The notes below the pieces were generated by a model that made no database searches, was not told the origin of the DNA, and was given only the letters and a program-made list of their open reading frames with translations. Below are positions 56,411-64,000 of a DNA stretch of 64,000 nt, one piece after another. The DNA comes from an uncultured virus (IMG/VR IMGVR_UViG_2927661242_000003) (lineage: Duplodnaviria > Heunggongvirae > Uroviricota > Caudoviricetes). The stretch lies in IMG/VR virus record IMGVR_UViG_2927661242_000003. One strand, given 5' to 3'. Numbering within the stretch: position 1 is the first letter of the stretch; every line of letters begins with the position of its first letter. Position numbers and translations under genes: made by a program.

Positions 56411-56706
56411 GAACCCGACACAAAAAACGCCATACCCAACACAAACCCAACACAAATAAATCCCTTTAAAATCAATATCTTTATCAACTTTGAGTTAGGT
56501 GTGTTGGGTGTGTTGGGTTTATCGGTCCTCGCATGAGAAGGAATTCCAGCGCCACGTTCACCAACAAAGAACGTCACGCATGCGCGCATGCGAAGCAAAA
56601 CCCAACACACCCAACACACAGCCCGCAAACCCGCGAAATTGAAGGGCAAAACCTGTGTTGGGTTTGCAATATCGACCCGACACACAACCAACACACCCGA
56701 CACACA
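56411..56706. repeat. Iteron cluster ACCC(A/G)ACACA, putative replication origin
   Basis: About 11 copies in direct and inverted orientation around an AT-rich stretch (56455-56495), just after the primase-helicase. Confidence 0.75.
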
Positions 56707-56717
56707 TTCAGACGCAG

Positions 56718-59414
56718 TCATGTTGCTGGCCCCTTTACATGGTCCCAGTTGTCCACGTTCCAGCCCGCCAACCGCGCCTTGGCCCGCCAGTTCTCCACCT
56801 GCTTGCCCAGCTCGGCCGCTTTCATTGATGGGGGTGGGGAAGCATTCGGATCGACAGGAAAGAAGAACGCACCAAACCGCCGGTTGTTGCCATCGGTCCA
56901 GGGGATTGCCCGCGTCTTATCCACCTCGGAACTGATGAACAGCGAGAACTTGGTCTGGCTCATCACATGTTCCTTGTTGCGCTGACACCACTCAAGGAAC
57001 AGCGAATAGAGGTCTGTGGACAGGCACGGCCCCCAAAGGCCGTGCCCCAGCTCGCTGTACTTCCATAGGTGCAGGAAGGTTTGCCAGCCGGCCCGACTCA
57101 AGGCCACCAGGCGCTCCCGGGCCTCAGTTGACGGTGGTCGCGTGCGTTGGTTGAAGTCGCCCAAGTCAATCGACAGAAGCCAGCCATACAGCGCGGCAAC
57201 GCCGCCCTGCTCAAGCTCGCGCCCGATTGCCTTCTGCCGCTCCACCGGCAGGGTTTCCATGGGCCACATGACCAGCATCCGGCGGTCGCTCTCGCTGATC
57301 GGCCAGGGCAAGATCTCGTTGCTCAGGAACACCGCGTTCATGTGGTTGGCTTCTTCCCAGCCGTTGATGAACTTGGATTCCATCCGGACGGTCTTGCCGG
57401 TGATCAGGTGCTTGATCTTGCCCACCTGGTTGTACCGCTGATCACGGCTCACCACCTCTTCAAACACCGCCCACAGCTTGCGGCTCTGCCAAGCGTTGAA
57501 GTTGCTTTCCAGCTGGGTCTGCCCCACGGTCGCTGCGTACTGTCCGTAAAGCATGCCCAGGGCATCGGCGAACAGCAGGCTTTTGCCCGACCCTTCCATG
57601 ATCGAATGCATCAACACGGCGGTGTCCATCTTGGCGCCCAGGTGCTGTAGCGGGTACGCCAACCAGCGTGTCAGCCACTGGGCCGCCGCTTCGTCGTGGT
57701 TGCACAGAAACGAGATCAGCCAACGCAAGTTGGCACAGGCGGCATCATCCCTGACGGGCTCCAGCGGCAGGCCATCAAAGGTGTTGATGTACACCGCCGG
57801 GTCCTTGGTCATGGTCGGGTCGAACACGATGTGCTCAACGTCCACCGTGCGCCGCTCGCTGCTGTTCAGCCACAGTGGATAGGTATCGCCAAGGGCCATC
57901 TTTACCGCGCCCTCGGCTATGCGCCGTTTTTTCTCCCGGTCCCAGACATCCTTGGTCCCGTCGATGTACACATAGCGGTCAGTCGGCGACATGCCGAAGG
58001 CATCACCCTTCTTACCGGCCATGCGCCGCGCCTGCTCGATGTCGCTGACATGATCGGCGGAGATAAGCCGCTTCGCGGTGTTGTCCAGCCACTCCTTGGC
58101 GATAGGCTTGCTCACTCGCGCTTCAAATGCCGACTTCTTCATCGCCCGCGCTTGGTCGCAGTCCCACACATGCGTGGTGCCCTCGATCAGAGCAAACCGC
58201 CGCAGCACTTGATCGACCGTCAACGCCTCCCCCGCGCCCCCCATAGGAGCCGGAGCGGCCTCGCTGGCTGCGATGTCGCCACCCTGGCTCGGCCCGCTCA
58301 TGTCATCAGAAGGGGGCGGGGGAAGGTCCCGGGGATCTGGGCGTGACGAATGCTGCATGCCGAGCATGCGCGCCGCCTCTTTCACCGCCCGAGACTGGTC
58401 GCCGTTGTGTTCCAGCAGGCAATAGACCTCAAACGCATCATTCTGGTGACCGTTGGCAAGCGGATCAGCGCCGTGGTGCGAGTACACTTTATGATCCTTG
58501 ACCGTGATGCCCGGCATGCCGGTACTGCTTTGTGCGTACAGCCACTTGCTGCCGCGCTTGATGTAGCCGTGGGCCCGCAGCAGCTCCTCGACGTCGTGAC
58601 AGCGGTTGAATTCATCAATCACCGAGGGCTTGTCGCCTTTGGGCGCCGGGCGCTTGAGCGCTTTGCCCGGGTCCTTCTTAGGCTTCGGCGCCCACGGGCA
58701 GGCCGCCTCGGCATCCCGCTTGAAGATGTCCCAGTTGTTCCAGATCGAAAGCAGCTCACCCGGCAGCACCGGCAGCCCTTCGGCCGCATTGGGCGCTTTC
58801 CGCCAGAAATAAGGCTTACCCGTGCCGGGATGAATCGACGGGGGCAACACGTCCTGCACCAGGCCGGCGCGCAGCTCCAGCACCGTGAAGCGCTGATACA
58901 GTTGCGCCTCGGCCTTCGCGGCGGCCTCCCCGGCCAAATCTCCGGATGCCTTGGCCGCCCTGGCCTGGGCCGTCAATCGCTTGTAGATCGACCCGTCCGG
59001 GTCATTTTCATTCGGCCACGAAAGCGAATGTCGGGTCAGCCCAACGCCATCCGGTACCTGGAACATCACCCGGAAGCGCGCCGGGTTACCGACCACAGTC
59101 GGAAACACCAGCGCCATTGCATCCAGGTCGATGCCTAACAGGTCGTAAAGTACGTGGCGGGTCCATTGCACATCATCGACATCGAGCGAGCAGGCCCGAC
59201 TTGGGCCCAGGACTACGCCGAGATTGTGCGCAGGATTCTTCTGCCAGAACGCATCGGCTTTGGCAGCGTCTGTGAAGTAGCCGCCGGGCTTGTTCCACCC
59301 CAGGCCCTTGGGGCCTTTCTCTCCGGGCTCGATGGGTACCAGGGACAGACCGAAGTCTTCGATGTAGCGCCGCGCCCACTCGGCGGTGGGCGCTCCATTG
59401 GCCTGATCAATCAT
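56718..59414 (-). CDS. Bifunctional primase-polymerase / SF3 helicase (DUF5906-type)
   Basis: N-terminal Prim-Pol (KGP, NLG, LDVD, LPPSIHP); Walker A EGSGKS and Walker B VFEE. Confidence 0.9.
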   Translation of the reverse strand: MIDQANGAPTAEWARRYIEDFGLSLVPIEPGEKGPKGLGWNKPGGYFTDAAKADAFWQKNPAHNLGVVLGPSRACSLDVDDVQWTRHVLYDLLGIDLDAMALVFPTVVGNPARFRVMFQVPDGVGLTRHSLSWPNENDPDGSIYKRLTAQARAAKASGDLAGEAAAKAEAQLYQRFTVLELRAGLVQDVLPPSIHPGTGKPYFWRKAPNAAEGLPVLPGELLSIWNNWDIFKRDAEAACPWAPKPKKDPGKALKRPAPKGDKPSVIDEFNRCHDVEELLRAHGYIKRGSKWLYAQSSTGMPGITVKDHKVYSHHGADPLANGHQNDAFEVYCLLEHNGDQSRAVKEAARMLGMQHSSRPDPRDLPPPPSDDMSGPSQGGDIAASEAAPAPMGGAGEALTVDQVLRRFALIEGTTHVWDCDQARAMKKSAFEARVSKPIAKEWLDNTAKRLISADHVSDIEQARRMAGKKGDAFGMSPTDRYVYIDGTKDVWDREKKRRIAEGAVKMALGDTYPLWLNSSERRTVDVEHIVFDPTMTKDPAVYINTFDGLPLEPVRDDAACANLRWLISFLCNHDEAAAQWLTRWLAYPLQHLGAKMDTAVLMHSIMEGSGKSLLFADALGMLYGQYAATVGQTQLESNFNAWQSRKLWAVFEEVVSRDQRYNQVGKIKHLITGKTVRMESKFINGWEEANHMNAVFLSNEILPWPISESDRRMLVMWPMETLPVERQKAIGRELEQGGVAALYGWLLSIDLGDFNQRTRPPSTEARERLVALSRAGWQTFLHLWKYSELGHGLWGPCLSTDLYSLFLEWCQRNKEHVMSQTKFSLFISSEVDKTRAIPWTDGNNRRFGAFFFPVDPNASPPPSMKAAELGKQVENWRAKARLAGWNVDNWDHVKGPAT

Positions 59415-59617
59415 CCGTTCCGCTCCCGCCACCCCTGACAAAGAATGCAGGTTTCGCACCCTTCAATCGCCTGCTGGCGGAGCAGCGGAATCGGTTCGCC
59501 GCAGTCCTCGCAGAACTGGGCACTGACCCGGTTCGACGGAAACACTCGATTGCGGTGGATGGCAACGTCCAACAGATACTGTGCCTGATCATTTGCCCGG
59601 TCGATGTCATCAGCCAT
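59411..59617 (-). CDS. TraR/DksA C4 zinc-finger protein (PtrB-like)
   Basis: MADDIDRA...CEDCGEPIP..R...CILCQ. Confidence 0.9.
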   Translation of the reverse strand: MADDIDRANDQAQYLLDVAIHRNRVFPSNRVSAQFCEDCGEPIPLLRQQAIEGCETCILCQGWRERNG

Positions 59618-60098
59618 GGTCGTGCCCTTCCATAGCTGCGCGGGCACCTGCCATGATCCCGAGTACAGCTCGGATCACATCGACGCCATGTTTATCCAGG
59701 GTCGCCACTTCGTGCGGCTCCCAGATGCTGTCAGCTGCCCCGGCGTGCATGCTCGAAACGAACTCACCGGTTTCCGCGAGCAACTTGCCGACGGCCTTAA
59801 GCGCATCACCTGTAGCAGGCACCGGAACTGGCTTGTACCAAACCACCCCTGCCGGACGCATCAGCGCATCGAGCAAAAGCGGGTACTGAGTGAGCCTGAT
59901 GACCTCTTCAAGGTCATCAGGGGTCAGCCAGCGGCGTTCCTCATTGAATTTCAGCTTCTTCTGCAGCTCGTCGTACTCCATGACCATGTCATGGGCCAGC
60001 GAGGTGATTCCGCCGTGATAGTCGCGCCCGGCACGATAAAGTGCCTCACGCAGAGAAAGGACCGGACCCGCGTCCGGCAACAGATCTGTGCGACTCAT
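59610..60098 (-). CDS. Phage regulatory CII-family protein
   Basis: YHGGITSLA...LQKKL...E.GE...AADSIWEPHE pattern; downstream of cro. Confidence 0.75.
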   Translation of the reverse strand: MSRTDLLPDAGPVLSLREALYRAGRDYHGGITSLAHDMVMEYDELQKKLKFNEERRWLTPDDLEEVIRLTQYPLLLDALMRPAGVVWYKPVPVPATGDALKAVGKLLAETGEFVSSMHAGAADSIWEPHEVATLDKHGVDVIRAVLGIMAGARAAMEGHDHG

Positions 60099-60165
60099 AA
60101 CCGTAAATGCCCCTGTTACGGTGTAGCCAGACGTTAGGGCGCGCCCTATCATCCAACCCACGACC

Positions 60166-60414
60166 GGTGTGCTGTGCGAATCGTGCTGTGCAGCACGGCT
60201 CATCGTTCCAGTCGATCCGGGGAATTCTTGTGGTGAGAGGCCCCGGACCGACGCCTATGCGGCGACTTGCATGTACCTCGTGTAAGTCGCTGCAGCCGGC
60301 CTGGTGTTTCTTTGGTGAGAGGTTCCAGGCCGGTGTTTCAAGTGGCGGCATGTATGTGCTGGTGCTGCCACCGCTGGACCGGGGGATTCTTGTGGTGAGA
60401 GGCCCCGGACCAGC
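60166..60414 (+). ncRNA. Putative structured RNA array: three TGGTGAGAGG hairpins alternating with variable hairpins
   Basis: Motif at 60231, 60313 and 60393 (80-82 nt period); stems need G-U pairs that work only on the + strand. Confidence 0.55.
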
Positions 60415-60419
60415 ACCCT

Positions 60420-60650
60420 TTATGCCGCAGCCCTTGAGCCGCGCAAGTACGCCCAATCAATATCCGGGCGAAGCTCCTCACAGGTGACTGCGCCCTGTGT
60501 CTCTCGCTCTATGTTCACAGCAAGACCACCATTTGCTCGCCGATTGCGATAGGCGACCTGCTTAAGCTGACCCGCCGTGGTCTGGCAACGACTGGCCAAG
60601 CTATCCAACTCTGCTTTCTCGAGACCTTTTATGTATGAATGCAAGCTCAT
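60420..60650 (-). CDS. Cro/YdaS-like regulator
   Basis: LAVNIERETQGAVTCEELRPDIDWAYL; GGAGGTG RBS; divergent from cI. Confidence 0.88.
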   Translation of the reverse strand: MSLHSYIKGLEKAELDSLASRCQTTAGQLKQVAYRNRRANGGLAVNIERETQGAVTCEELRPDIDWAYLRGSRAAA

Positions 60651-60674
60651 AGGCACCTCCGTTTCGCAAAAGAC

Positions 60675-60740
60675 TAGCAGCCGCTAACGGCATTAACAAT
60701 AGCTGCGCGCAATTTACAAAACGCTAAACGAAATTAAGAT
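60675..60740. promoter_or_regulatory. cro/cI operator-promoter region
   Basis: TAGC-N4-GCTA at 60675-60686; TTTACA/TAAGAT promoter-like boxes before cI. Confidence 0.6.
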
Positions 60741-60746
60741 GCTTGG

Positions 60747-61397
60747 ATGAATATCAGCCAGCTACGAATTGACGCTCTGCGAAAGCTTATTGGCGACCTG
60801 AAAACCAAAGAGTTTGCAGACCGCTATAACCTCGACGCGTCCTACATCTCCCAGCTTTTGAATGGTCATCGCCCATTGGGTGATAAAGCAGCCAAAAATC
60901 TTGAAGAAAAGATTGGCCTGCCTGGTGGAACACTCTTGATGCCCGCGCACTCAGCCCAGGACGGCATGGCGCTTGGCATTGAGCCAGGTCCTAATTTAAC
61001 GACACGTTTCCGGCGGGCGCCCATTCAAGGACAAGCCCAAGTGAAACCGGACGGATCGTGGGATGAGCTGACACCAACGGGTGGCTGGATCGATGTACCT
61101 ACTTCGGACCCAAGTGTTTACTCAGTGCGCATCAAGGGCGATGCGCTGGCACCAGCCATCAGAAATGGTTGGATTGTGTGGTGCGAGCCCCGCCACGTCT
61201 TAGTACCTGGCGAATACGTGCTGGTATCAAAGACTAGCGGCGAGCAAATGATTAAGGAGTTGCTGTATTCGAATGACGAAGAAGTCAGCCTAATGTCAGT
61301 TAACGACACCTATGGGAGGGTCACCATCCCACGAACGGAGATCGAAAAAATCCACTATGTCGGAGGCATCATGCCACCGAGCCAGATTCAAGCCTGA
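60747..61397 (+). CDS. CI-like repressor (HTH + S24 domain)
   Basis: ASYISQLLNGHRPLGDKAAKNLE HTH; S24-like C-terminal domain (IKGDAL, IKEL). Confidence 0.88.
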   Translation: MNISQLRIDALRKLIGDLKTKEFADRYNLDASYISQLLNGHRPLGDKAAKNLEEKIGLPGGTLLMPAHSAQDGMALGIEPGPNLTTRFRRAPIQGQAQVKPDGSWDELTPTGGWIDVPTSDPSVYSVRIKGDALAPAIRNGWIVWCEPRHVLVPGEYVLVSKTSGEQMIKELLYSNDEEVSLMSVNDTYGRVTIPRTEIEKIHYVGGIMPPSQIQA

Positions 61398-61416
61398 TCA
61401 AAGATCAGCAAACAAG

Positions 61417-61442
61417 AAACCGCTCTCAGAGCGGTTTTTTTT
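61417..61442 (+). terminator. cI terminator
   Basis: AAACCGCTCT/AGAGCGGTTT stem followed by a T8 run. Confidence 0.8.
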
Positions 61443-61461
61443 GCATTACGTAAAAATAATA

Positions 61462-61498
61462 TAGCCACAGCTATTGTTAATTCTGTTAGCCGTTGCTA
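61462..61498. promoter_or_regulatory. Two TAGC-N4-GCTA operators before the rightward early operon
   Basis: 61462-61473 and 61487-61498; same palindrome as 60675-60686. Confidence 0.7.
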
Positions 61499-61535
61499 AC
61501 TTTGCCTCGTACACCTCTCACCAAGAGTACGAGAT

Positions 61536-61721
61536 ATGCAAACCACTACACAGCACAGACTCGCCCGCTGCCCGGTGTACCTCCACCCAGCAGCCTGCAC
61601 CAGCCCCGAAGCCATCGACAAGATCCAGCGCCAGACCGGCCTGCTGGTGATCGCCACAACCCGCCGCACTGCCGCCGCCAAACCGGTAGACCTCGGCCCG
61701 TTCGGGGGTGACGCAGCATGA
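61536..61721 (+). CDS. Small early protein (61 aa)
   Basis: VYLHPAAC...IQRQTGL motif; ends with DAA and overlaps the next ATG. Confidence 0.65.
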   Translation: MQTTTQHRLARCPVYLHPAACTSPEAIDKIQRQTGLLVIATTRRTAAAKPVDLGPFGGDAA

Positions 61722-62293
61722 AACCATTGCTGATCGGCCTTGCCGGCCCGGCTCGCTCGGGTAAATCCACTACCGCTGACCACCTGGTGCGCAACCACCT
61801 GCTGGAGCACTACGCCTTCGCCAACCCGCTGCGCTCCGGGCTCATGGAGATCTTCAACCTCGACCCGGACGACTTCGAAGGCGAGCGCAAAGAGCAGCCC
61901 CTGGACTGGCTTGGCCGGTCCCCGCGTGAACTGATGCAGTCGATGGGCACCGAGTGGGCCCGCCAGCTGGTGCACCCGGACGTCTGGGTAAAGATCGCTG
62001 AGCAGAACCTCAACTACCTACAAAACTCGCTGTCGAGCGTGGTCGGCTTCGTCGTCAGCGACGTCCGCTTCGAGAACGAAGCCGAATTCATCCGCCAGCG
62101 AGGCGGCACGATCCTCCACATAAGCCGCCCCGATGCTCCTGCAGTGAACCCACACGCCAGCGAGGCAGGCATCCACGTCAAGCAGCCAGACCTGATCGTT
62201 CGCAATACCAGCGATCGAGAGCATTTGCGGTGCCTGATCGACGACTGCGTGCGGGTCATCCGGCGCCGCAACCTGGACAAGACCGCAGCCTGA
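61718..62293 (+). CDS. Deoxynucleoside monophosphate kinase
   Basis: IGLAGPARSGKST, FANPL, PRELMQSMGTEW, SDVRFENE and HASE motifs. Confidence 0.92.
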   Translation: MKPLLIGLAGPARSGKSTTADHLVRNHLLEHYAFANPLRSGLMEIFNLDPDDFEGERKEQPLDWLGRSPRELMQSMGTEWARQLVHPDVWVKIAEQNLNYLQNSLSSVVGFVVSDVRFENEAEFIRQRGGTILHISRPDAPAVNPHASEAGIHVKQPDLIVRNTSDREHLRCLIDDCVRVIRRRNLDKTAA

Positions 62294-62303
62294 GGACACG
62301 GCC

Positions 62304-62579
62304 ATGAACCGCACCCTTGACGAAACAGCGGCGCTGCTGGGGCTCAAACCCCGCGCCTTCCGCGCAAAGCTCCGGGAACTGCGTGTGCTGGCAAAGGACG
62401 GGACCCTGGCCAGCCACCACCGCGACCAGGGCCACCTGTACTCCGACCCGCGCTCTGTGCAGATCGGCAAGTCCGGGCAGTACAAGCACTACGCCGTGGT
62501 GATGGTCACCGAAAGCGGCGTGCAGTACTTGGCCAAGAAACTGGGCATCACCATCGCGAACAAGGAAGCCGCAGCATGA
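62304..62579 (+). CDS. Antirepressor KilAC/ANT-domain protein
   Basis: AALLGLKPRAFRAKLRE...VMVTESGVQYLAKKL pattern. Confidence 0.72.
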   Translation: MNRTLDETAALLGLKPRAFRAKLRELRVLAKDGTLASHHRDQGHLYSDPRSVQIGKSGQYKHYAVVMVTESGVQYLAKKLGITIANKEAAA

Positions 62580-62959
62580 AGACCAACTACTTCAACGCCT
62601 ACACCCAAGCCCTCGGCGCCCTGGCCCTGATCCCGATCTACCTGACCAGCCCCGGCACTGTGAGCAAGGCCACCCTGATTGGCACCGCCAACGAGGCCAC
62701 GCTGGCCCTGGCGAGCATGCCCGCCTGTGCGGTCGAGTTGGCGGAGGTTTATCGGTGCGTCAGCAGCGTGATCCAACCCGGCCAGATTGCCTACGTCACC
62801 CCGACCAATGTCCCCGAGACGCCCTTCGGGGCCGTCGTGGCGGATGAGCGCGGCCTGATCTGCGCCGCCGCCCGAGGCGCCAGCAAAGAGGGGCTGGCGG
62901 AACTGATCCGCCTCAAGCTGCAGCCCGCCGAAGTGGGGGCCGGGGAGGCAAGCACATGA
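62576..62959 (+). CDS. Hypothetical early protein
   Basis: Translationally coupled at both ends. Confidence 0.6.
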   Translation: MKTNYFNAYTQALGALALIPIYLTSPGTVSKATLIGTANEATLALASMPACAVELAEVYRCVSSVIQPGQIAYVTPTNVPETPFGAVVADERGLICAAARGASKEGLAELIRLKLQPAEVGAGEAST

Positions 62960-63198
62960 GCGACACCCTCGACCAACTGAGGCGCCAGTTCGCCACGCCC
63001 TGCCCCACCCTGGCAGCGGTGCGGGAGCAGTATTTCGCGCACATCCGCACTGACCGGCATCTGCTCAGCGAAATCAAAAAGGGCCGGGTGAAGCTGATCG
63101 TGACGCGCCTTCACGGGTCTGCACGCGCCAAACCCGTGGTTTATCTGCACAACCTGGCCGCCTACCTCGACGCCCAAGCGGAGAAAGCGGCGGCCTGA
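62956..63198 (+). CDS. PrtN-family (pyocin activator-like) DNA-binding protein
   Basis: TLDQL...L..VREQYFAH...S.RAK..VYLHNLAAYLD pattern. Confidence 0.75.
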   Translation: MSDTLDQLRRQFATPCPTLAAVREQYFAHIRTDRHLLSEIKKGRVKLIVTRLHGSARAKPVVYLHNLAAYLDAQAEKAAA

Positions 63199-63248
63199 CA
63201 ACGGTGGCCCCTGCCGTCCAGGGGCGAACATCCAGTGAGACACAGCAC

Positions 63249-63599
63249 ATGAAACCAACCGACACCGCCGAATTCATCGGCGAACTCAACGCCGGAGTCT
63301 TCGCCAGCCAGATCGGCCACGCGCTTTCAGAAGTCGCAGCAGGCGTGGTCGACCACGGCAAGGTCGGCACCGTGACCATCACCTTCACCTTGAGCCAGAT
63401 CGCATCCAGCCATCAGGTAACCGTCAACCACAAGCTGGCCTACAAGGTGCCAACCAAGCGCGGCAGCCGCAGCGAGGACACCACCCTCGACACGCCGATG
63501 CATGTCAACGAAGGCGGGCGCCTGACCCTGTTCGCCGAGGCCCCAGGCCCTGGGCAGTTGTTCGACCGGAACGACGCACCGATTCACGCCAAGTCCTAA
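63249..63599 (+). CDS. YfdP-like prophage protein
   Basis: FIGELNAGVF...VPTKRG..SEDTT..TPMHV..GG.LT pattern; precedes the YfdQ-like gene. Confidence 0.75.
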   Translation: MKPTDTAEFIGELNAGVFASQIGHALSEVAAGVVDHGKVGTVTITFTLSQIASSHQVTVNHKLAYKVPTKRGSRSEDTTLDTPMHVNEGGRLTLFAEAPGPGQLFDRNDAPIHAKS

Positions 63600-63640
63600 A
63601 CCACCCTGCTCCAAACCTCTCACCACAAGGAACAGATCCA

Positions 63641-64000
63641 ATGGAAGCCAAAGCAATTCAACTGCTCCAAGACACCGCCATCCTGGCCCACGCCAAGCGC
63701 CTGGACACGCACACCCCAACCCTGGTGCTGCCGTCCGACCAGAAGATACACAGCATCGAAAAGTTCCAGCCTCTGCGCAGCCGCTTCCGCGGTGAGCTGG
63801 TCACCCACTCGCTGCACGACTTCGGCAACTACGTGCAACACCACAGCTCCGAAGCTGCAGCCGCCGGTTTCGTTGACGCCGAACAGATGCGCTGCACCGT
63901 GTACTTCAATCTGGGTGACATTACAGCCCCCGGTCACGGCGACTTCACCGCAACGCTGAACCTGCGCAAGACCGCCGGGTTTCAGGCCCTGGAACGCGCC
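63641..64000 (+). CDS. DUF2303/YfdQ-like protein (partial)
   Basis: MEAKAIQ...RSRFRG...SL.DF..Y...FNLG...PGH.D; open to the window end. Confidence 0.78.
   Translation, partial: MEAKAIQLLQDTAILAHAKRLDTHTPTLVLPSDQKIHSIEKFQPLRSRFRGELVTHSLHDFGNYVQHHSSEAAAAGFVDAEQMRCTVYFNLGDITAPGHGDFTATLNLRKTAGFQALERA

Follow-up and report, generated by a model that had tools for sequence, protein, structure and literature searches.

Introduction

Silencing antisense RNAs of temperate phages are known from a few enterobacterial models (P1/P7 c4, P4 CI, P22 sar and lambda OOP). The c4 RNA is cut out of the transcript of the very operon that it targets, sar is encoded opposite its own target, and OOP covers the 3′ end of cII; we know of no described trans sites for OOP in the other early operon. 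The CI RNA of P4, a phage that has no protein repressor, is an immunity factor processed from the transcript that it controls; it pairs with a short site that the early transcript carries twice, and causes premature termination. Of relevance to the arrangement described below, lambda has its nutR site in the cro–cII interval and its nutL site where the other early operon begins.

The action of c4, sar and OOP is outlined in a 2025 review (PMC12197685). In P1 and P7, loop-borne antisense stretches of c4 pair with short sites around a ribosome-binding site located farther on in that DNA strand and so block production of early/antirepressor-operon proteins, with a few base differences setting heteroimmunity between the two phages; sar pairs with the ant mRNA and blocks antirepressor synthesis; and OOP, a short RNA with its own promoter and terminator, is antisense to the cII message and lowers cII via RNase III. 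The table of phage RNAs in that review lists one from a Pseudomonas phage, which is a virulent phage (PMC12197685).

Here, we describe a locus between the cro-like gene and cII of a lambdoid Pseudomonas prophage, contained in a 64-kb stretch of DNA (the whole stretch analyzed, referred to hereafter as the window), which we are highly confident is a structured non-coding RNA gene of ~265 nt (60160–60425, + strand). By analogy, we consider this RNA likely to work like P1/P7 c4, P22 sar and lambda OOP but not to be a member of those families, given that it has no Rfam match, its own promoter and terminator, both cis and proposed trans partners, hairpin-loop targets, and repeated seeds. Like c4, it has two seeds, with target sites that flank a start codon on the same DNA strand, a KilAC-domain gene in its target operon, and matched loop variants. 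Unlike c4, it has its own promoter and terminator and its candidate targets lie in another transcription unit (separated from it by cI, by a terminator hairpin and by the second promoter region); it is also perfectly cis-antisense to the cro–cII transcript, the sites that it is proposed to target are themselves loops of hairpins, and it has one to three copies of the seed hairpin. The likeness to OOP is one of features only (a dedicated promoter, an intrinsic terminator, and complementarity to the cII message), and this RNA, unlike OOP, covers the cro–cII leader. It departs from sar in that its proposed main targets share its strand at distances of 1.1 to 3.2 kb, and from P4 in that this prophage has a CI/S24 repressor. 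With nutL/nutR it shares the placement of one element after cro and another where the second early operon begins, as well as the combination of a hairpin and a linear motif; unlike at nut sites, the stems are selected on the antisense strand and no boxA-like word is adjacent.

Results and Discussion

Organization of the immunity region

The immunity region of the window is that of a lambdoid Pseudomonas prophage. Genes on the − strand run from a cro-like HTH gene, across the RNA array, to cII and then to a TraR-type zinc finger gene and primase; on the + strand, cI is followed by an early operon encoding a 61-aa ORF, a dNMP kinase, a KilAC-domain protein (reported in the initial annotation, and recovered here by its domain match), a PrtN/excisionase-like protein, and DUF2303. 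The elements that bear on what follows are:

59610–60089, − strand: cII, PF06892 (CP76 family), with a 5′ leader that is the strand opposite the RNA promoter
60420–60656, − strand: cro-like HTH gene, PF15943 family, phrog_35 repressor
60713–60740, + strand: promoter-like site of the cI-like repressor, from a consensus scan
60747–61397, + strand: cI-like repressor, HTH plus S24 peptidase
61417–61437, + strand: terminator hairpin 3′ of the cI-like gene
61468–61502, + strand: operator and promoter region serving the rightward early operon, with −35 TTGTTA (61474–61479) and −10 TAACTT (61497–61502) inferred
62304–62579, + strand: KilAC-domain protein, 91 aa, third gene of the operon (E 2.8e-7)

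The rightward operon hexamers TTGTTA/TAACTT were read by eye, the consensus scan having made no call there. A 31-nt inverted repeat (87%) relates 60675–60705, upstream of cro, to 61468–61498, upstream of the rightward operon; since this repeat joins them, the two early operons appear to resemble a PR/PL pair under common operators. The first ORF of the operon (ATG 61536, 61 aa in the window) belongs to a conserved family of 53–68 aa, phrog_13491, with no Pfam match and no named function by PHROG or protein atlas (in the latter it falls into unnamed clusters only, under 0.9), and its AlphaFold model (mean pLDDT 63.4) is of too low quality to search for similar folds. Positions 60050–61550 of the window have no match in the nearest genome and virus record (G001, G002).

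A predicted RNA gene antisense to the cro–cII spacer

The RNA gene is antisense to the spacer between cro and cII, its promoter being situated in the cII leader and pointing to cro. A blind consensus scan of 59900–61600 (3 sites called vs 0.8 expected) includes TAGCCA-17-TATCAT among its calls, from which transcription is predicted to start at about 60159–60161. The features of the gene, all on the + strand, are:

60124–60152, + strand: sigma-70-like RNA promoter, −35 TAGCCA (60124–60129), 17-nt spacer, −10 TATCAT (60147–60152)
60160–60425, + strand: predicted non-coding RNA, with a 5′ single-stranded GUGCUGUG seed, six hairpins, and a U-rich tail
60169–60176 and 60183–60190, + strand: two copies of GTGCTGTG, complementary to CACAGCAC, the former single-stranded, the latter in a small 5′ hairpin
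60211–60252, + strand: motif hairpin 1, loop holding UUGUGGUGAGAGG, motif at 60231–60240 (covariance model R1, 25.9 bits)
60258–60294, + strand: spacer hairpin without the motif, 14-nt arms, 86% complementary, present in the minimum-energy fold
60295–60334, + strand: motif hairpin 2, loop UCUUUGGUGAGAGGU, motif at 60313–60322 (R1, 26 bits)
60342–60371, + strand: spacer hairpin, predicted fold
60373–60425, + strand: motif hairpin 3 (60373–60414, motif at 60393–60402; R1, 58 bits) and U-rich tail

The initial annotation had described three GC-clamped motif hairpins at 80–82-nt spacing that alternate with variable hairpins. We observe exactly this: three 33-nt repeat units (60217–60249, 60299–60331, and 60379–60411, spaced by 82 and 80 nt) each carry TGGTGAGAGG in the loop of a GC-clamped hairpin, and the intervening elements (60258–60294, 60342–60371, and the 5′ hairpin) fold as had been described. 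The RNA has two kinds of antisense seed, the GGUGAGAG type in hairpin loops and GUGCUGUG near the 5′ end. Motif hairpin 3 and its U-rich tail, which overlap the cro stop codon region, are likely the intrinsic terminator of the RNA; the tail is present in the window and plainer in relatives.

Sequence change in the stems informs on which strand is the functional one. The initial annotation had remarked that several stems need G–U pairs, favoring a + strand RNA, and the relatives considerably strengthen this point. Across 38 distinct relatives, 97.4% of the 456 stem cells of the terminal hairpin pair, 8 of its 12 pairs are compensatory (both sides change), and none of 500 shuffles reaches its covariation score; the + strand stems hold 46 G–U vs 0 A–C cells, such that pairing on the − strand falls to only 87.3%. 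When the 53 distinct array hairpins are read in the cII-sense orientation, A–C cells outnumber G–U cells (35 vs 8), and 49 of the 53 fold better as + strand RNA. Within the window itself, the predicted fold is ~30 kcal/mol better for the + strand (−143.5 kcal/mol, z −6.9) than for the − strand (−113.1 kcal/mol, z −4.4), and R1, a covariance model built from the terminal hairpin, scores 58, 26, and 25.9 bits on the + strand vs one 15-bit stem-only match on the − strand. Taken with the promoter, the terminator and the RNA-library contigs (below), the stem changes and fold leave us in little doubt that the array is a + strand RNA antisense to cro–cII.

Relatives were collected via CII, giving 55 CII-bearing viral contigs; the RNA gene is directly upstream of cII in 54 of these, the 55th being cut off at this point. 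The RNA promoter is kept in 54 of the 55 relatives, with constant hexamers and a constant distance to the cII start, while the sequence of the spacer varies (its length is 17 nt, or 18 in one relative). Motif hairpins number one in 16, two in 29, and three in 9 of the 54 loci. The periodic array is hence a lineage-specific expansion of a common form that has one or two motif hairpins, and in the window this modular RNA, whose length ranges over about 80–270 nt, has its longest form. Of the trans-acting, multi-unit antisense array proposed in the initial annotation, the RNA strand and the matched targets stand, and the array form is not general.

Comparison with Rfam, which the initial annotation had suggested, places the RNA in no described family: cmscan of 58000–64000 against Rfam 15 (both strands, E ≤ 10) returns 9 weak matches, all far below gathering scores, and none of them, C4-type models included, overlaps 60160–60425.

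Candidate target sites at early gene starts

The 10-mer CCTCTCACCA occurs exactly five times on the two strands of the 64-kb window. Three copies are on the − strand, all in the array (60231, 60313, and 60393); the other two are on the + strand, at 61514–61523 and 63616–63625, shortly before ATG 61536 and ATG 63641, both of which begin ORFs, in agreement with the initial annotation, which had found the complement of the array motif at just these two places outside the array. Allowing up to one mismatch gives 8 matches vs 4.64 expected, and it is therefore the exact, clustered copies that stand out. The second motif of that annotation, TGTGCTG, which had been held to complement early-gene starts, is contained in the complement of the 8-mer CACAGCAC; this has 10 exact matches in the 64-kb window vs 3.67 expected, and four local sites are in register with such a role (60169–60176 and 60183–60190 on the − strand, 61549–61556 and 63241–63248 on the + strand). 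All five exact 10-mers and the four local 8-mers are oriented for pairing between a + strand RNA and + strand gene-start mRNA; because the RNA is + strand, its GGUGAGAG loops and 5′ word GUGCUGUG are complementary to + strand mRNA. The candidate targets are:

61506–61556, + strand: candidate target 1, hairpin 61506–61533 with loop ACCUCUCACCAAGA (61513–61526), ATG 61536, and CACAGCAC at 61549–61556
63241–63251, + strand: candidate target 2, CACAGCAC abutting ATG 63249 of a 116-aa ORF (phrog_204)
63606–63643, + strand: candidate target 3, weak hairpin 63606–63635 with CCUCUCACCACAAG (63616–63629) in its loop and 3′ arm

The predicted 5′ end of the early mRNA coincides with, or adjoins, the target 1 hairpin. 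Its loop is best matched by that of motif hairpin 2, with a 12-nt exact complement at 61513–61524; the ATG follows 3 nt past the stem, and CACAGCAC comes 11 nt further, within codons 5–7. At target 3, CCUCUCACCACAAG is a 14-nt exact complement of the loops of motif hairpins 1 and 3, and the site overlaps the AAGGAA Shine–Dalgarno sequence of the DUF2303 gene (ATG 63641); in another complete phage, a similar site lies ahead of the DUF2303 homologue. Many relatives present a further variant ahead of the gene that follows the PrtN-like gene, in which a motif hairpin is succeeded by GGAG-CACAGCAC-ATG, placing CACAGCAC between Shine–Dalgarno sequence and start codon (the product of this second-site gene has 173 aa and a hydrophobic N-terminus, and had no PHROG match). 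Retention of CACAGCAC both within codons and before an ATG marks it as a nucleotide-level signal.

Complementarity length in one genome is not evidence alone, as the 64 kb contain many chance complements of 9–13 nt to GC-rich stems, and the 14 nt at 63616 are the longest by a narrow margin. A motif pair at 892–917 was taken as chance, lying without a hairpin at the end of an unrelated chromosomal ORF. RNAduplex, applied to the whole RNA against 95-nt targets, ignores intramolecular structure and returned long, meaningless duplexes; counts of exact runs were used instead.

The target hairpins, unlike those of the array, lack the surplus of G–U cells that selection acting on the mRNA strand should leave. 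In 46 distinct first-gene target hairpins, read in sense, non-Watson–Crick cells comprise 19 A–C vs 2 G–U (about 12 of the 19 stemming from one inherited loop-adjacent position), and the second-site target hairpins are balanced in A–C/G–U by eye. The target stem may be unimportant, deliberately weak, or an inverted copy of the RNA hairpin by descent.

Loop and target remain matched across relatives

The co-variation of array and target motifs that the initial annotation had put forward as a test of its proposal is borne out in the relatives. For 50 distinct RNA/target pairs (L001 being left out, as the search pattern took the wrong ORF), the longest exact complement to the RNA in the 75 nt around the ATG of the first ORF has a median of 11 nt, vs a median of 6 nt and a 95th percentile of 9 nt for random 75-nt windows from the same loci; in 44 of the 50 pairs, the match is equalled by at most 5% of random windows, and in 49 there is a complement of at least 7 nt on both the upstream and the downstream side of the ATG. 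The layout of target 1 is found in 49 of 50 distinct relatives, and layout and RNA promoter are kept together in all 12 genome loci inspected. Different phages have different loops, and for at least six variants the target matches that of the RNA:

Common C form: CUCUCACC, RNA and target matched
U form: relatives L016 and L079, RNA and target matched
G form: relative L017 and, separately, L033 and L051, where it affects only one hairpin class and its own target
LPPA56: one base missing in RNA and target alike
pAN: GGUGAGUGGG with CCCACUCACC
PG1: quite different loop, still a 12-nt exact match

The surrounding stems, promoters, and cro genes differ between these phages, which argues that the match between loop and target is kept by selection and is not the product of recent copying. 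Co-variation is imperfect in one relative (L055), where the distal target differs by one base from the loops of hairpins 1 and 3.

RNA-library contigs over the array

Contigs assembled from RNA libraries of an organism with a near-identical prophage cover the array. In two single-end studies these are short and separate (60176–60418 and 60193–60357), with limits that fit the predicted start (about 60160) and terminator (60414 plus tail), and cI has its own contigs apart from them (60732/60755–61392); in two paired-end studies, one contig spans 59847–61510. Such contigs carry no strand, no ends and a rough level only, and would on their own be compatible with DNA carry-over; the word depth in the same runs (7095 and 3363 for the array contigs vs 13 and 8 for cI) is a pointer, not a measurement. 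The parts of 58500–64000 devoid of contigs are cro and cII (runs X9 and X11), the end of the primase gene, and most of the rightward operon, and we do not count these gaps as evidence of silence.

Alternative explanations for the matched hairpins

Matched loop variants are predicted equally by RNA–RNA pairing and by one protein that reads the hairpins of both early mRNAs. The initial annotation had offered as its alternative a nut-like protein-binding site read in sense in both early transcripts. In such a scheme, the CUCUCACC hairpins would be nut- or put-like sites for a phage or host factor that modifies RNA polymerase or translation, the antisense transcript being secondary or acting to mask the sites. 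Much of the layout suits this: the positions mirror those of lambda nutR/nutL, all five exact motif copies are in hairpin loops and in operon-sense orientation, one cognate protein would likewise give variants that match within a phage, and a small conserved first ORF follows the first site, where lambda has N. That ORF, however, has neither a Pfam match nor a confident fold, and an N-like protein was not recognized there by Pfam or PHROG. Selection in the array stems falls on the opposite strand (46 G–U vs 0 A–C cells; 97.4% vs 87.3% paired), a conserved promoter and terminator frame that antisense strand, no match to the 12-letter boxA consensus within 3 mismatches is present in sense beside the five hairpins, and the placement of the second motif on start codons suits occlusion better than antitermination. 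We consequently regard sense-strand protein sites as improbable, the positions being compatible with them and the strand signal not.

An RNA that acts purely in cis has somewhat better prospects, though we consider it unlikely as a full account. Here, an OOP-like RNA or a convergent promoter would tune cII and the replication genes via RNase III cleavage or transcriptional interference, and the loops of the other operon would be leftovers of an inverted duplication behind both promoter regions. The perfect complementarity of the RNA to the cro–cII spacer, a promoter that faces PR, the 31-nt inverted repeat joining the two promoter regions, and an A–C excess in the target stems that fits inverted copies of RNA hairpins are all as this would predict. 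Leftovers should nonetheless drift, yet at least six loop versions are matched amid unrelated stems, promoters, and cro genes; the 8-mer is matched too, at the start codons of two or three genes, and the targets before DUF2303 are conserved despite being far from the duplicated segment. The RNA might alternatively be a moron sRNA of the prophage, directed mainly at mRNAs of the host or at incoming foreign phages, with the sites in the phage itself incidental. RNA-library contigs over the RNA in lysogen cultures are consistent with such a function, and E. coli prophage sRNAs that limit other phages have been described (PMC12803456); the conserved partners that we find, in contrast, lie in the phage itself, making this an outside chance as the principal role. 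It is compatible with a c4/sar-like RNA and not exclusive of it.

A model for RNA action at both early operons

We favor a c4/sar-like antisense RNA that would have two sites of action, the cro–cII transcript in cis and the second early operon in trans, a reading that we judge probable from sequence comparison; trans pairing with the second operon, taken by itself, is likewise somewhat favored by the matched sequences. An immunity-type role is a tentative assignment that we hold with less than even confidence. Transcription of the RNA would start at the promoter within the cII leader and stop at the last GC-rich hairpin and U-rich tail. In cis, the RNA is fully complementary to the cro–cII spacer of the PR-type transcript, and cleavage of the duplex, collision with the convergent promoter, or interference with read-through could lessen expression of cII and the replication genes. 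In trans, a loop seed may dock loop-to-loop onto the 5′-terminal hairpin of the mRNA from the divergent early operon, with the 5′ seed pairing to CACAGCAC, which lies either shortly ahead of the first reading frame or a few codons inside it; the two seeds would then clamp the ribosome-binding site from either side and block translation. The second and third gene starts of the window (63241–63251 and 63606–63643) would be addressed likewise. Sequence comparison establishes the gene, its strand, its conservation and the matched complementarity; by inference, pairing of this kind would take place in vivo, repress translation and contribute to maintenance or superinfection immunity, the RNA acting as a second layer beside the CI repressor and the variable loop base(s) perhaps setting specificity.

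A more far-reaching version of the same model is speculative, and we think it slightly less likely than an immunity role as such. The RNA might be a second determinant of immunity that is independent of protein and readable as a loop code, a single abundant transcript silencing both early operons of its own phage type, one in cis and the other in trans through loop–loop contacts. The C, U, G, deletion, pAN, and PG1 loops could then, equally speculatively, represent RNA heteroimmunity groups that cut across the cI/cro types, with which the module recombines freely; in the same doubtful vein, extra hairpins (one, two, or three per RNA) would add target genes.

The RNA suggests a brake on phage gene expression beside the protein repressor. 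Its design is clean (a promoter is followed by one to three hairpins that bear seeds, the last of which is also the terminator), and natural compensatory variants exist. If the proposed trans action is true, it would explain why, across cI/cro types, the module is accompanied by cII and by the gene that opens the other operon, would predict RNA-level cross-immunity between prophages, and would provide a compact, re-programmable loop–loop repressor for Pseudomonas.

Distribution of the RNA gene

In the openly accessible literature searched, PMC7326022, PMC12197685, PMC9936078, and PMC11846083 included, we find no description of this RNA. The RNA is nevertheless frequent: of 151 species genomes sampled from the genus, 16 have an R1 match, as do 3 of 151 genomes sampled across the family, in 3 of 21 genera. 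The RNA gene is also present in isolated phages of P. aeruginosa and Stutzerimonas, namely Meadow, Lodos, LPPA56, KT1, PG1, and pAN, and a target-type hairpin is present in phage SC_9. Annotators have called spurious ORFs over the RNA region, for example in phage LPPA56.

Exchange of the RNA–cII module and insertion of cargo

Comparison of the relatives (CII-bearing viral contigs and phages) reveals that the antisense RNA and cII travel together downstream of at least three Cro-like genes of visibly different kinds (loci L003–L057, where the Cro-like gene is found ~300 nt upstream from the terminator of the RNA), namely a YdaS-type and two other HTH types, as distinguished by eye from their N-termini; the RNA–cII module has thus been recombined with different immunity types. 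The spacer between the RNA and cro can itself accept cargo, since one extra gene is genuinely inserted there in phage LPPA56 (L001, 3245–3611), for which the published annotation shows a pair of small genes in this interval, both labelled “hypothetical protein”.

Candidate target sites and the gene that follows the second site

The stems of the target hairpin (61506–61533) and its homologous sites, taken over 46 distinct relatives and read on the mRNA strand, contain 19 A-C mismatches vs two G-U pairs. In other relatives (L086, 1510–3020), the second target site lies upstream of a gene for a 173-aa protein whose N-terminus is hydrophobic and which contains a long helical region, without a PHROG match; a DNA cytosine methyltransferase gene comes next.

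Candidate regulatory sites around cI, cII, and the primase gene

Further candidate elements in the window are as follows.

60675–60705 / 61468–61498: arms of an inverted repeat (31 nt, 87%)
60713–60747: stretch up to the cI ATG with a promoter-like site, TTTACA-16-TAAGAT
60089–60120 (−): conserved palindrome upstream of the cII start, ACCGTAAA...TTTACGG
60061–60078 (−): terminator-like hairpin with U-rich tail
56431–56706: clustered 9–11-nt direct repeats, ACCCAACAC and relatives

The inverted repeat encloses cI between its arms and probably holds shared operators of both divergent early promoters; a TTAGC-N4-GCTAA palindrome can be read by eye inside it. The promoter-like site ends 7 nt short of the cI ATG (60747) and the RNA-library contigs that cover cI start at 60732 and 60755, so that the message for the repressor may lack a leader, like the one made from lambda PRM.

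The palindrome at the cII start also occurs in relatives, one of which carries a double change that keeps it intact (ACCGTTAA...TTAACGG, L062/L066). It could form an RNA hairpin presenting the cII ribosome-binding site, and could equally be a protein site, positioned just upstream of the antisense promoter. The loop of the palindrome contains purine-rich, Shine–Dalgarno-like bases. The terminator-like hairpin falls within the first cII codons, and may be a chance occurrence or an attenuator.

The direct repeats adjoin the primase gene, just past the gene end (56718), and a 24-nt unit occurs six times in their clusters. In appearance the repeats resemble iterons, and a replication origin could lie here.
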